NCBI GenBank assembly: GCA_012295275.1
Contig: CM022676.1
Coordinates: 16,616,001-16,680,000, forward strand
Reading direction: 5' to 3'
DNA: 64,000 bases
Source of the DNA: Chrysomallon squamiferum
Taxonomy: Eukaryota; Animalia; Mollusca
In this document: piece by piece, positions 737 to 63,376 of the stretch
Layout: every line of letters starts with the position of its first letter
How positions within the stretch are numbered: the stretch's first letter is position 1
Notes under the pieces: generated by a model
The model's input: the letters and a program-made list of their open reading frames with translations, nothing else
The model's database searches: none
What the model was told of the DNA's origin: nothing
Translations under genes and position numbers: made by a program

Positions 737-881
737 TACCAGTACGGTTAGTAAATGGAGGAGGAAAACCAACACAAGGTCGAGTTGAGATTCAAGTAAA
801 CGGGACGTGGGGAACAATCTGTGATGATGATTTTGATGAGAAAGATGCTTCTGTTTTATGTCACATGTTAGGATTTAGTCG
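737..881 (+). CDS. SRCR domain exon A (N-terminal half), copy in contig 1
   Basis: tttcag acceptor and gtaatt donor; 145 nt, phase 1->2. Translates as (V)[47 protein letters not shown], with the SRCR hallmarks VRL..G....GRVEI....WGTICDD.F...DA.VLC. Confidence 0.93.
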
Positions 882-1703
882 GTAATTTGTTTATTATATT
901 TGTATTTATTTATTTTTGTTATTTAATGAAATAAAATTCAAAAGTATTTTTACAGACATAGTAGATTCAGATATACTCACAACCAGAAGATAACGAATTG
1001 TTGTTCAAATACATTACACGCGAAATTCCTCTCGATGGAATTTTTCACATTTCAAATATGTTTGTAGGAAATAATGATAATTATAGTAGCTGTAGTATTA
1101 GTAGTAGTATTAGTAGTAGAAGTAGTAGTAGTAGTAGTAGTAGAAGAAGTAGTAGTAGTAGTAAATGTATATAATGCTGCTAAGTATATTTACACTATAT
1201 TAATGGTATTACTGTATCAAACATTGTCCATTAAAATTGTTTCGAAATAATTTAGAAAATAAGTATATTCTTCCGAAAACCTTAGAAATAAACGCACGTC
1301 TACAGAATACTTTTCCAAGAAATTTTTCATAATATTTATTTTATTCATTGTATTTACTTATTATACAAAAATAATAATAATAAGAAGACGAAGAAGAAGA
1401 AAGAAGAAGAAGAAGAAGAAGAAGAAGAAGAAGAAAAGGAAAAGATGAAGAAAACAAGAAGAATAAAGAAAAACACAAAAAATAGCAGTAATGATGATAA
1501 ACGATCGCATTTCATTTAGGATATTTAAACTATCTTTTTCAGTATCAACGCATTGTTTCATTAAACATTGTTGGAATCACATAGAAAGTAATAACTTTCT
1601 TCTCAAAACTTTGACACTAAAATGAGATGTGTTGAAGATGTTTAGTAAACCATGCTCTATAATACTCATTTCACTGTACATATTATTCATTTCTTTTTTG
1701 AAG

Positions 1704-1871
1704 GTTTAATGCAACATCATATCAAAGTGCTCACTTTGGACAAGGAACTGGACCAATATGGGTTGATGATCTGAGTTGTGATGGAGATGAAGACAGTGTT
1801 GAAAAGTGTTCATTTCGTGGCTGGGAAAACACAACTGTGTTCTGGGGAGGATGCTGGTATCAGCTGTCAAT
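1704..1871 (+). CDS. SRCR domain exon B (C-terminal half); 2 nt short, so frameshifted or an assembly error
   Basis: Reads [32 protein letters not shown]. It is 168 nt versus 170 nt for the intact copy at 49167-49336, and the frame is lost in the WGKHNCGH segment. Confidence 0.85.
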
Positions 1872-2685
1872 GTCAGTTTACATTTGACTTTTTATTTCAT
1901 TGTGTATCAATAACACAATGTTTTAACTTGCTGGCATCAAAATTATAATTCGTGTGTTTAATGGTGTTGTACTGAAGTGTGTATCTATCTTTATTTGCTT
2001 TTAGTAATAACTGAAACCAAAAAAATAATTAATAATATCAGGATTGGAAAAAGTAGTCAACTGAAAAGCTAGGTTTAAAAATAACCCTGAATTCATATGA
2101 GATATATTAATGTTGCAGTTATTCGTTATTAGTTACTTTTCTTGTTTGTTTGCTTGTTGTTGTTTATTGGTTTCCTTGTTTGACTGTTTGATTATTTGTA
2201 ATTCATGTAAGACTTAGCATAGGCATCAAAGCTAAACATATACCATTAAGCTGCTTATAACAGAGGAAACTCATCAGTGAACGTTTACAGATTATTCTTG
2301 TTGACTGGCGTATAAATAGGAAAATAAAGTTGGTAAGGGACGAAACAGCTTATATGAAATTTTCAGAAGAAATATATTATTAATCAATTACTAAATCGAT
2401 TTTCCTCAAAAGAAGAAATAAACATGAGAGTTACTGAAAATAACATCAGAAAAAACTTAATAATAAATAATAATAATAATAATGATAATAATAATGATAA
2501 TAATAATAATAATAACAATAATAATAATAATAATAATAATGGTCTTTAATAATTTTAAACACTAGCCTTCCTTCAGAAATGTAATGAAATTTGAAGAAAT
2601 CCACTATCGTAATGGTATTGTAAAATAGCATATGTAAACTGAACGTAAGTTTGGAATTTTATAGTATTTTGTTTATGTTTTTCAG

Positions 2686-2767
2686 TATGTCTCAGGGCTA
2701 GTCAATAGTGGAGGTATTTCAACACAGGGTCGAGTTCAGTTCAAACTTAACGATATATGTGGCACTA
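2686..2767 (+). pseudogene. Truncated relic of SRCR exon A
   Basis: ttcag acceptor followed by [27 protein letters not shown] sequence, which then runs into intron-type sequence. The same relic is at ~48281-48361 on the minus strand. Confidence 0.7.
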
Positions 2768-59621: not shown

Positions 59622-59679
<58 letters not shown>

Positions 59680-62600
59680 TGACGTTCACGGTAAACAAAG
59701 GGAAACCTTAGAACAACGATTTGCTATTTAATTTTCTGAACTATGTTTTACCTCCGTCACTGCTCACAATTTCAATTTCGTATGAATGTGCTTCAGACAA
59801 TTTTCATAGCGCATGTTTCACTGGTGTATCGATAAACGTTGTTCAGTCCTGTGTAATAGTAACTGAGAAAGAGGAAGAAGATGAAGAAGTTAACTTTCAA
59901 AGATCTAAATGTATCTGATTATCTGTATTGTTGTTGTTGTTATTATTAGTAGTATTTTTATTAGCGGTATAAGTAGTAGTAGTATTAGCAGTAGTAGTAG
60001 TTGTTGTTGTTGTATTGTTGCTTTTGCTGTTGCCTTTATCCTTGTTATTGTTATTGAGCAGTTACTATTATTTATCATCTCACAAATGCTGATAAACGTA
60101 AATTATTTCTTTCTTTTACTATCTTTTCCACACTTTTGTGCAGACTCTGTGTTACCAGAGAATCTGCCAGATCGTCGTAAATAACACCCGAGTACACATT
60201 TGTTCTCGTGTGACACACTATTTTTAATCTGACCTACATAAGAAAAGAAACACGCACTGGCTATAGTGCTACTGCGAATATCACTTGAACCTCATTAAAC
60301 TGTTCATGGAAATATCTGAAATACGAAAGGAACACTTTGAAGCTGGCGTTACGTATGTTGTAACGTTATGACAAAACAATAACAAAACGACTCAGTCTCA
60401 AACTAATTAACATTAATCTACAACAGTCATTAGCAAAAGTGAGATAGGAGCACGTTGAGTCATGGGTCAAGTTAGTCCATCTAAAAAATACCCGTGCAGA
60501 AATTATTTACTTTCCTATTTTGAGTTCTTATTGTTTTAGATTAACCAGATATGTCGCTTTCGAACAAAATTTTCCCAGAATGCCATCTGTTCGATTATAA
60601 GAAGTTAAGACAATTGGCCTCCTAGCTTGCTGAACAAAATGAGAAGACATTTCCAACTACAAGGACGAACTTGGGATGGAAATCATCAACATTTGTTTTA
60701 TTAGAGGCTTTAACTCTGGCTATGATTGTATATTCTTGTTTTTTAGTTATTTATCTTATGTGTAATTATTATTAATTGTTTCACCTTTGTAAGTAGGGAA
60801 GAAATAAAATAAAATAAAGTGAAATAAAATAATTGAATAAAACAATATATAAATAAGTAAATAAATATAGTATTAAAAGTGATAATTAGAAATTACCAAT
60901 AATCACTTAAAAACTATCACAAATCAGGATATTTCAAATATTAGTAATTATTTCAAATAATGAAATTTTGTTTTAAACGACTATGAGTGCTTGTTTTCCG
61001 ATTATACAGAATCATCAGTACCTTTAATTACGAAACGAACCAGTTTCCACACGAAAATAATCAGAACAAAATTATAATTCTCATCAGTCCCGATTTTATT
61101 CACTTATAAACGGCCTTTCAAAAATGTGTTAGACAAGTGCATACGACTGTTGTATGTTTTGGATAGAGAAACAGTCGATACATTTTAATATAATTAATGT
61201 CTGGCTACTCTGTTACTATTATCATCAACTTAGCTGTTACTTATTGCGACAAACAGTCGATGCAAATAACATTTTTAATTTTCTCTATATGTCCCTTTAT
61301 GAATTGTGAAGCAGTTTGTTGAACTACATCATGGCAGAAAGTGTGTAATAAACTGCTGGCATACATCTAGATGTTTCGGTAGCAGTAATGAAATATTAAT
61401 GCCAAATAAGAAACATTCATTTGTTACAAATTTCATCTTTATACGGAGCAAAAAAAAAACGAGCTATTAAAATGCAAACATATCTCAGACGACAGAACAG
61501 TTATTTTATCGATTTCTAAACTGTTCGGAAGTGTGATGTTCGATCAGATGTCTTTGCTATTTCCTGCCGTCAGAATGTCTGATATCAGCTCACAATTCTG
61601 GCGAATGTGATTAAGATTTTTAGGTCGGCTTAATGGACGATACTACGATGTTAAGTCATTTTGGTTCACCTGTAAAATATTTCTGAAAGGTGTTTGTAGG
61701 CGAGAAAAAATGTGAAAACATAATCAAATATTAAAATGACACATTAGCTACACATTTCAATATTTTTGTTTAATAATTACTATTGCCATCCATATAGACA
61801 CTACTCTCATTCACACATGCATGTACATAGAAATATACATACATACATACATACATAAATACATACATACTGTTCAACAAACTGTTCAACAAACTGTTTC
61901 ACAATTCATAAAAGGACATACATACATAGATATCTATATACATATATACATGTAAACATACATACATATGCATAAACATGCATATTTACTTACGTACATA
62001 CGTACATACGTAACACATACATATGTACATTAATATAAATATACGCAGAAAAGTGCAAGCATGAACGACTTTTACATATTGAAACAAAACATTTTGTTTC
62101 TCTAAATTGAATTTATGATGAATTTTAAATATTCAGTGTGATGCGATGTGTGATTGTCTGATTGAAAACGTTTCAGTTTTTAACTTCCAGGTCATGCGCT
62201 GTTTGATCAGTGATTAAAACTGTTTTATTTACGTTCCCAGTCTCAAACTAATCCTGAATAGCTTAATTTTCAACAGAATTGTTTGATTCCAGCTGCTGTT
62301 GAGTAAATTTAGGTCGCTTGTCGGCGAAGAAATATTTTAGAGAAAATAAATAAATAAATAAAATAAAATCATTCTTAGTTAAATGTTTTATATTCTGTGT
62401 TAATTCAAGAACTAATAAAGCTAAACTTAAATACTTGACACATTAATAACTTTTAATTAATGCAGTTATAAAGTTGAATTTCTGGTCCCGTCAATCATAA
62501 TAATTATTAATTATGCACAATATTTATGAAAAATTAAAAAGAAAATTATATATAAAAAATATGATTTCTATCAAATAAGAAAACATGTCACTACCTTCTA

Positions 62601-63100
62601 TTATGATTATATTTTAAAAAAAAAAAAATATAATTTAAAAACAAAATAAATTCTTACTTCAAATGATTTATACTGTGTGTTTATTCAAGCACTAATAAAG
62701 ACAAATTTGAATCTTAGAGAACGGAATAATAATAGTTAATAAATACAATTATAAAGTTGAATTATCTGATCCTGTTTAGCACAATAATTGTCAAATATAT
62801 ACAATATTACAATGACAAAAACAGATTATAGGTATTTTCCTTTAACAAATATTCTTGCAAATGAAAACTATCGTATTTCTGTATATATAGTTTTCTTTCT
62901 GAAGAAATTGTACTATTATAATTGACTGTCTTATATAAACCTGTTATTATTTCAGTACCAGTACGATTAGTGAATGGAAGAGGAATACCAACACAAGGTC
63001 GAGTTGAGATTCAAGTAAACGGGACGTGGGGAACAATCTGTAGCTGTAGATTTGACACAAAAGATGCTGGTGTTCTCTGTTCAATGTTGGGATTTAGTCG
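57540..63100 (+). CDS. 5' part of a paralogous SRCR receptor: signal exon 57540-57594, candidate microexons 58626-58649 and 59171-59194, SRCR-A exon 62956-63100 (gene presumably continues beyond the window)
   Basis: MCFFAYVWLYIVIPTVIS-G|gt (phase 1) joins in frame to ttcag|TA CCA GTA CGA, giving [48 protein letters not shown]. Intron sequence at ~59676-59820 is homologous to 52340-52475 (reverse), and 62410-62950 to the SRCR introns. Confidence 0.75.
58500..59560. repeat. Diverged ~545 bp tandem duplication containing the microexons
   Basis: gaccctag/aggc, cagtggaa.gatacattcctgttaa.tgtgagtt, ctgacctaaata and taactaaaattgtgcttta each occur twice. Confidence 0.85.
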
Positions 63101-63309
63101 GTAAAAGAAAACAAATCTTTTGTACAATATTCCGTTTTACGAACGTATTATTGACTACTGCTTCTGTTGCTGCTGCTACTACTACTACTACAAATACTAC
63201 TTCTACTACTACTACTGGGGCTACTAATTGTACTACTACTACTATATTAATCAGCCATTTGATCTGTGTCGGAGGTGTGTGTCTCACAATATAACTGTAG
63301 ATATTTCTG

Positions 63310-63376
63310 ATAATCTGTGGTGAACGTTTTCACACAAGAGATGCTACTGTTCTCTGTTCAGTGATGACATTTTGTG
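63310..63376 (+). pseudogene. Intronic relic of the 3' half of SRCR exon A
   Basis: Translates as IICGERFHTRDATVLCSVMTF, similar to TICSCRFDTKDAGVLCSMLGF just upstream. Confidence 0.65.

Follow-up and report, generated by a model that had tools for sequence, protein, structure and literature searches.

Chrysomallon squamiferum, the scaly-foot snail, is known for an expansion of SRCR (scavenger receptor cysteine-rich) genes labelled 'DMBT1'. A portion of one genome paper describes as many as 65 paralogues in tandem, which carry 0-5 SRCRs apiece and are expressed in scale epithelium and mantle (PMC7142155), and a portion of a second counts 70 'DMBT1' copies and leaves immunity versus armour open (PMC7736800). 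For sponge and sea urchin, too, an excerpt of PMC10855680 describes families of tandem SRCRs in which the domain number varies and exons are shuffled. Here we analyze a window of 64,000 nucleotides of C. squamiferum DNA (GenBank assembly GCA_012295275.1, contig CM022676.1, positions 16,616,001 to 16,680,000 of the forward strand), in which SRCR exons lie next to immunoglobulin (Ig) and fibronectin type III (FN3) exons. Our main point is an SRCR tip on a receptor family of the Ig-FN3-transmembrane (TM) type, which was absent, like any mention of the published expansion, from a sequence-only reading of the same DNA that had proposed a diversifying birth-and-death cluster of SRCR receptors.

Compared by domains and not by sequence, the window gene is like the published expansion of Chr11 paralogues in its multi-copy SRCR exons and in an SRCR number that varies between paralogues, and unlike it in having an Ig-FN3 stalk, a TM segment and a tyrosine tail. 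Human DMBT1/SALSA shares the tandem SRCRs in allele-variable number (8-13, PMC3100851), the GRVE...GTW motif and the cation-site residues. However, it is secreted and combines group B domains with SRCR-interspersed domains (SIDs), CUB and ZP, whereas the window SRCRs are of group A on a predicted TM protein. Membership in DMBT1 was rejected because each window SRCR has six cysteines and two exons, which is the group A definition (PMC3100851), and not the eight cysteines and one exon of group B. SRCR, Ig, FN3, TM and tail take up the whole model, with no CUB, ZP or SID, and its SRCRs abut.

Ig-FN3-TM receptors of Gigantopelta aegis and Haliotis are alike in their homologous IgA, IgC, FN3, TM and part of the tail, in modular variation and in tyrosine-motif tails. 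They differ by an Ig tip, by usually having IgB and IgD, and by the lack of SRCR in any examined; relative to them, IgB and IgD are absent from the window gene, the A-C-F set is doubled and one YxxL is lost. These relatives are annotated as hemicentin-, nephrin-, CEACAM-, syg-2- or turtle-like, and a CEACAM5-labelled expansion in G. aegis appears in a portion of PMC7895826. Expanded hemicentin-like and Ig families, together with Ig/FN3 proteins in sclerites, are reported in an excerpt of PMC11871041. As a model for the window tail serves oyster CgIgR (PMC6994640), a mollusc Ig-TM receptor that bears an ITAM (immunoreceptor tyrosine-based activation motif). Likened by description, it has five Ig domains and no SRCR or FN3 reported, and the window motif lies on the margin of what the ITAM consensus allows.

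SRCR and Ig Pfam domains occur together in 35 of 120 listed SRCR matches, namely 34 named teleost proteins and P0042, which reads SRCR8-FN3-Ig with a C-terminal hydrophobic stretch. Because their domain order differs from that of the window gene and none is among the IgC relatives found for it, these are likely independent fusions; the SRCR+Ig combination recurs and is not categorically new. In the literature covered, which included few subscription papers and the genome-paper supplements in part, no description of a mollusc SRCR-Ig-FN3-ITAM protein or of a scaly-foot SRCR-Ig protein was found. The variable-number SRCR expansion is thus already published, and what would be new is the predicted SRCR-tipped, tyrosine-tailed Ig-FN3 receptor, domain-shuffled from known kinds.

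Structure of the predicted receptor gene

The window consists of three contigs (contig 1, 1-4166; contig 2, 4367-55911; contig 3, 56112-64000) with 200-N gaps between them and a GC content of about 32%. On contig 2 we modelled a receptor gene whose exons are recognized by the Pfam families SRCR, Ig_2 and fn3. Its parts are as follows.

37794-50302, minus strand: receptor model, 14 exons, 854 aa open, predicted order SRCR-SRCR-IgA-IgC-FN3-IgA-IgC-FN3-TM-tail
50158-50302, minus strand: SRCR1 exon A, phase 1 to 2
49167-49336, minus strand: SRCR1 exon B, phase 2 to 1
48275-48361 (lower end approximate), minus strand: SRCR-A relic, truncated, within the SRCR1-SRCR2 intron
47258-47402, minus strand: SRCR2 exon A
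46472-46641, minus strand: SRCR2 exon B, followed by a 700-nt phase-1 intron to the first Ig exon
44127-45771, minus strand: stalk module 1 (IgA 45771-45517, IgC 44920-44642, FN3 44426-44127), all phase 1-1
41394-43417, minus strand: stalk module 2 (IgA 43417-43163, IgC 42183-41905, FN3 41693-41394)
40474-40587, minus strand: predicted TM exon
37794-40033, minus strand: three predicted tail exons (40033-40000, 38583-38531, 37858-37794) with YDNL-x12-YEVL
53249-53311, minus strand: damaged leader-exon homologue, ACG for ATG and one base short

All 14 exons have AG/GT ends (26 splice sites intact) and the 854 codons contain no stop. Were point mutations the only change, a frame of this kind would stay open with a probability of 0.08 at neutral drift of 2% and of 0.002 at 5%. 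Its intactness speaks against a long period of decay. The A exons go from phase 1 to 2 and the B exons from 2 to 1; Ig, FN3 and TM exons are all 1 to 1. Whole SRCR (A plus B), Ig and FN3 modules all start and end in phase 1, as the sequence-only reading had stated. The two stalk modules are 87-95% identical exon by exon and represent a tandem duplicate of Ig-Ig-FN3. We regard the exon structure, the phases, the domain identities and the stalk duplication as established, while the tail exons were predicted from splice signals, phase and partial homology.

From phase, the short distance of 700 nt and the lack of a leader in between, we infer that the SRCR and Ig exons are joined in one mRNA. Scanning of the 700-nt intron revealed no leader-like exon, and the same kind of scan recovers the leader of a paralogue on contig 3. 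At both IgC-to-FN3 junctions (44642/44426 and 41905/41693, minus strand) joining of the exons makes a TGT (Cys) codon. G. aegis proteins carry a cysteine at their IgC-to-IgD junction, the site matching this TGT; loss of IgD would therefore preserve that cysteine.

Both contig-2 SRCRs keep the equivalents of SALSA D1019, D1020, D1058, D1059, N1081 and E1086, a match of motif spacing (39, 22, 5 versus 38, 22, 5 in SALSA) and not of structure. In SALSA, the mutants D1019A and D1020A lose binding to hydroxyapatite, heparin and bacterial protein (PMC7043408). The contig-3 exon at 62956 has CDD changed to CSC, so that the first two Asp of the cation site are replaced, and this SRCR-A is predicted to lose or change binding.

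Relatives of the stalk and tail

The Ig exons match only G. aegis proteins (23 of 60 candidates), IgC being 68-88% identical, and SRCR (PF00530) was found in none of these 23 IgC relatives. Their layouts follow V/W-A-B-C-D-F, with doubled A, doubled F or no F. A TM segment was detected by hydropathy in 15 of the 23, and three of these carry a strict YxxL/I-x6-12-YxxL/I tail; several other TM-bearing proteins have a YxxL-x7-YxxM tail. The G. aegis protein P0161 has a 190-aa tail with six YxxL motifs, three of them identical, which suggests that tail motifs expand too in the stalk family.

A broader comparison used a library of 1.84 billion representatives. Here, a local SRCR profile gave no match in any of the best 150 of 342 IgC relatives, whereas it detects the two SRCRs of the window at E 4e-40 or better. 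Names were looked up for 10 of the best IgC relatives, eight of which belong to G. aegis or Haliotis. The best matches to G. aegis and Haliotis reach 74-78% for IgC, 52-56% for FN3, 43-45% for IgA and 31% for TM-tail. From the IgC relatives, 33 proteins were picked for single-stretch or higher identity; 14 of them bear a TM, and in nine of the 14 the tail follows the ITAM pattern YxxL/I-x6-12-YxxL/I. A search with the FN3 exon gave 43 candidates, none significant at E 0.001.

We regard it as established that the stalk, the TM and part of the tail are homologous to Gigantopelta and Haliotis receptors and that SRCR is lacking in the relatives examined. By IgC, FN3 and TM homology the window gene belongs to the gastropod Ig-FN3-TM family. 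The N-terminal Ig tip of this family, and the IgD between IgC and FN3, are missing from its layout S-S-A-C-F-A-C-F. The SRCR pair appears to occupy the position of the relatives' Ig tip, with IgB and IgD missing.

In the tail, YDNL-x12-YEVL fits the wide ITAM pattern YxxL/I-x(6-12)-YxxL/I (consensus in PMC6994640), and its two motifs align with the first and the last of the tyrosine motifs in tails of G. aegis. Tested against shuffles, similarity of the tail alone is clear for two of five relatives (0 and 15 of 1000). Oyster CgIgR recruits Syk via its ITAM upon bacterial binding (PMC6994640), and by analogy signalling via the two YxxL motifs of the window tail is plausible.

Copies, a probable second haplotype and neighbouring sequence

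The sequence-only reading had counted five intact-looking SRCR-A exons, three B exons and three relics. These and the further copies of the two families are listed here.

737-881 plus, 3647-3791 plus, 50302-50158 minus, 47402-47258 minus, 62956-63100 plus: SRCR-A exons, 145 nt each
1704-1871 plus, 49336-49167 minus, 46641-46472 minus: SRCR-B exons
2686, 48361, about 63311-63376: SRCR-A relics
1-3250, plus strand: likely uncollapsed second haplotype of 51035 to about 47800, with A exon 737-881, B exon 1704-1871 and the relic at 2686
3647-3791, plus strand: SRCR-A exon, distinct, from a hybrid unit whose upstream flank is SRCR2-like (93%) and whose downstream intron is SRCR1-like (84%)
59131-59194, plus strand: predicted leader exon (signal peptide) of the paralogue on contig 3, intact and with a phase-1 donor
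62956-63100, plus strand: SRCR-A exon of the paralogue on contig 3, differing from the other A exons at 22-25 of its 145 bases
63311-63376, plus strand: relic, second half of an SRCR-A exon
13370-14937, minus strand: decayed exons of a second Ig-family member (IgC relic 13967-13800, IgD relic 13633-13370, further Ig-like relic with stops)

All five A exons are open with AG/GT ends, and the three B exons and three relics are present; the B exon at 1704 is out of frame as assembled (168 nt versus 170). Five independent A exons were nevertheless rejected, as the 737/1704/2686 set repeats contig 2, the 737 and 50302 exons differing at one of 145 bases. Positions 1-3797 match 51035-47252 at 96.3% including introns. 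Up to 3250, 3208 aligned columns contain 22 substitutions (0.7%), and of 42 indel events 32 fall in homopolymers; real paralogous non-coding stretches within the window are 12-16% different, and the heterozygosity given in a portion of PMC7142155 is 1.38%. Contigs from all four public runs that lie on contig 1 drop or add the bases separating it from contig 2, at the single-base sites 416, 438, 1535, 1694, 1822, 3008 and 3108 in four of four runs. The piece 2187-2453 shows no other letters and four gaps in three runs, and two other letters and four gaps in the fourth, a pattern as expected of the contig-2 version; the public runs thus carry that version. Near-identical pieces fall into the lowest depth class of every run, as for one locus, this depth being uncalibrated and not a copy number. 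Positions 1-3250 are likely an uncollapsed second haplotype, and the independent tally is therefore four A exons, two B exons and two relics.

The frameshift in the 1704 B exon is likely a sequencing error, because the public runs show the contig-2 version of the single-base differences. Two further differences are not noise. In the B exon of contig 1, five substitutions fall within 28 bases, four of them matching exon B2, as left either by conversion between units or by polishing with paralogous reads. Beyond 3250 there are 32 substitutions in 540 columns. The 3647 unit, being hybrid, has the form expected from an unequal crossover or an additional internal unit, or may alternatively be a read mis-join. 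Contig 1 likely represents the second haplotype of this locus and possibly carries one more SRCR unit. Joints such as 1028-3936 and 613-3630 were rejected as deletions; we attribute them to other paralogous units that match two introns of similar sequence.

Contig 3 holds a true paralogue. The DNA upstream of it follows contig 2 collinearly over 54.0-51.4 kb and picks up again at 48.3 kb, so that it is without one whole A+B+relic unit of about 3.1 kb; we regard this unit loss as established. Its difference from contig 2 amounts to 15% in the flank and 15-17% in the exon, and its B exon and stalk, if any, fall outside the window. The leader-exon region at 58494-59400 (plus strand) is a tandem duplicate (78%), of which the first copy, at about 58588-58650, is without ATG and dead.

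Additional copies are visible in the four public runs, where many distinct contigs, short ones that cannot give copy number, lie on SRCR exons. At individual SRCR sites (1776, 2740, 3682), 10-20 separate contigs per run differ in their letters, and flank classes diverged by 5-10% were seen in all four. The depth of the A-exon bin exceeds that of near-identical intron pieces about 90- to 400-fold, a sign of many copies only and not a copy number. Moreover, the stalk modules recur in different numbers in four published gene models of C. squamiferum (PMC7142155, Supplementary Data 3), namely (FN3-IgA-IgC)x2, IgA x2 plus (FN3-IgA-part IgC)x2.3, and FN3 x3.9 in two genes; the table is silent on SRCR tips of these models. 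IgD occurs in the window only in the decayed gene at 13.4-13.6 kb. True paralogues and dead copies, the mark of birth and death, are thus both present in the form of the contig-3 paralogue, the relics, the dead leader copy and the decayed Ig member, and module gain, loss and death are supported.

The multi-copy family with module gain and loss proposed by the sequence-only reading is thereby supported; the term 'diversifying' is not supported by the exon comparisons. pN (nonsynonymous) is below pS (synonymous differences) in nine of ten A-exon pairs, the tenth differing at one base, and also in the B1/B2 and FN1/FN2 pairs; the sequences are too few for per-site tests. We do not take positive selection as shown, with pN/pS at or below about 1. 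Substitutions had been placed in the NG..QG loop and the C-DDD-F segment, and six of the ten variable residues among the five A exons do lie there (three each), with four elsewhere. All three C-DDD-F changes come from the single copy at 62956, and the T/A change is private to the 3647 exon.

Several other features surround the receptor gene. At 4367-8100 (plus strand) lies the 3' part of a CLCA-like gene (TIGR00868 partial, three exons), truncated by the gap at 4366 and ending in a predicted TM and a short tail. An intronless ZNFX1-like helicase gene (PF25396, AAA_11) occupies 27537-34700 (plus strand). Its 5' part is broken by stops and frameshifts, past the helicase start comes a GC-rich tandem repeat of 4.7 kb (29290-34030), and the gene is likely a retro- or pseudo-copy. 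Its 3' end (34419-34844) is duplicated (87%) at the end of contig 2 (55487-55911); such a fragment on both sides of the receptor gene hints at a block segmental duplication. A 1.2-kb open serine-rich exon with several tyrosine motifs at 8607-9883 (minus strand) follows a TM-like relic, has no Pfam or NCBIfam match and may have been the tail of the decayed Ig gene (13-15 kb); positions 16321-16544 hold a 224-bp copy of part of this exon (91%). The long degenerate minisatellite at 18968-21470, with inverted copies (18968-19386 versus 19584-21250) around a short inverted repeat, is possibly a transposon remnant.

Proposed receptor and competing explanations

With moderate confidence, we read the contig-2 gene as a whole as a chimeric, exon-shuffled SRCR2-(Ig-Ig-FN3)2-TM-tail single-pass receptor that would bind anionic ligands and likely signal through YxxL. 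Phase-1 SRCR units were likely shuffled in, replacing the N-terminal Ig domain of a gastropod Ig-FN3 receptor. As all modules are phase 1-1, intronic recombination would swap them and keep the frame, and unequal crossing-over among tandem phase-1 units would change the number of tip and stalk modules. Judging from the motif spacing shared with SALSA, the SRCR tips would use calcium to bind anionic ligands of microbes or matrix. The stalk, its length set by the module number, would keep them off the membrane, and the tail, by analogy to oyster CgIgR, would recruit an SH2 kinase. The gene would then likely be a microbe sensor made by exon shuffling.

Several observations weigh against this proposal. 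The SRCR2-to-Ig junction is a prediction from genomic DNA; one published stalk model begins with IgA at residue 3, and the published DMBT1 domain table (both parts, Supplementary Data 2, PMC7142155) has no Ig or FN3 row. The leader-exon homologue of contig 2 carries two lesions (ACG for ATG, one base missing), of which the many single-base indels of the assembly could explain one, not clearly both. The other leader candidates are poor, 53430 being microsatellite-derived, 51940 weak and 50465 poorly hydrophobic; the 53430 frame was rejected as an established leader, the leader scan yielding about one such candidate per 2-3 kb. The pN/pS of the Ig duplicate pairs is about 1 (0.083/0.084 and 0.051/0.048), which fits relaxed constraint as well as function. 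As for the tail, the stricter ITAM definition of D/E at -3 and a spacing of 6-9 (PMC9546547 for the spacing) contrasts with Ser at -3 and a spacing of 12, the middle YxxL of the closest G. aegis tails is lost, and tail-only similarity is unclear for three of five relatives (149-434 of 1000 shuffles).

Some of these points feed other explanations. The SRCR exons might form a small secreted protein upstream of an ordinary Ig receptor, as separate neighbouring units: exon B2 can be read through 38 codons to a stop with an AATAAA in the next intron, published 'DMBT1' models give SRCR without Ig or FN3, and these modules are joined in no relative examined. However, AATAAA occurs in six of seven other introns checked, the donor of B1 is the same as that of B2, and the gap is just 700 nt, with matching phases and no leader-like exon between, so that we consider this explanation unlikely. 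Still somewhat less probable to us is a real chimera that is a recent pseudogene without leader, in a family degrading at this locus. The two leader lesions and the pN/pS near 1 of the Ig duplicates would fit, as would the decayed Ig-family member and the broken ZNFX1-like gene on the same contig; the 854 codons and 26 splice sites are intact, though, the SRCR-B and FN3 pairs both have a pN lower than pS, and single-base indels are many in the assembly.

The receptor could also be made as modelled and serve adhesion or matrix anchoring in the scale- and shell-secreting epithelium instead of immune signalling, which we hold to be rather doubtful. SRCR paralogues are highly expressed in scale epithelium and mantle according to a portion of PMC7142155, SALSA SRCRs bind hydroxyapatite and heparin via the same site, and one stalk paralogue is listed at 9.6-fold, with an identical value in the gill and scale columns. 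Yet tyrosine-motif tails are widespread in the stalk family, and the Ig/FN3 rows in the part of the sclerite proteome available (first 12 of 15 fn3, 5 of 5 Ig_3) are three other, much longer proteins. That all extra copies are haplotigs of one gene, the outcome the sequence-only reading had set as its own refutation, holds for most of contig 1 (1-3250). As an account of the whole it is highly improbable, contradicted by the contig-3 paralogue with its divergence in flank and exon and its other unit count, by the 10-20 contigs per run with other letters, by the diverged flank classes and by the published paralogues.

Beyond the single shuffled receptor gene, which we continue to favour, a wider scenario is put forward tentatively. 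In it, units of the amplified SRCR array would have been grafted onto the ITAM-type Ig-FN3 family in the scaly-foot lineage, yielding combinatorial signalling scavenger receptors whose tips and stalks vary between paralogues and between the two alleles of one animal. Tips would hold one, two, three or more SRCRs, some with a rewritten calcium site, and stalks one to three Ig-Ig-FN3 modules or FN3 x4. Part of the 'DMBT1' armour expansion would then be mis-annotated and would instead be immune or symbiont-sensing.

As one apparent 'paralogue' is likely a haplotig, copy counts in such clusters are possibly inflated. The locus offers a recent, readable example of phase-1 exon shuffling between two expanded families. 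Both genome papers label the SRCR expansion DMBT1 and leave armour versus immunity open for it; if our proposal is true, a group A SRCR on a tyrosine-motif Ig-FN3 receptor would give part of this expansion a signalling output.

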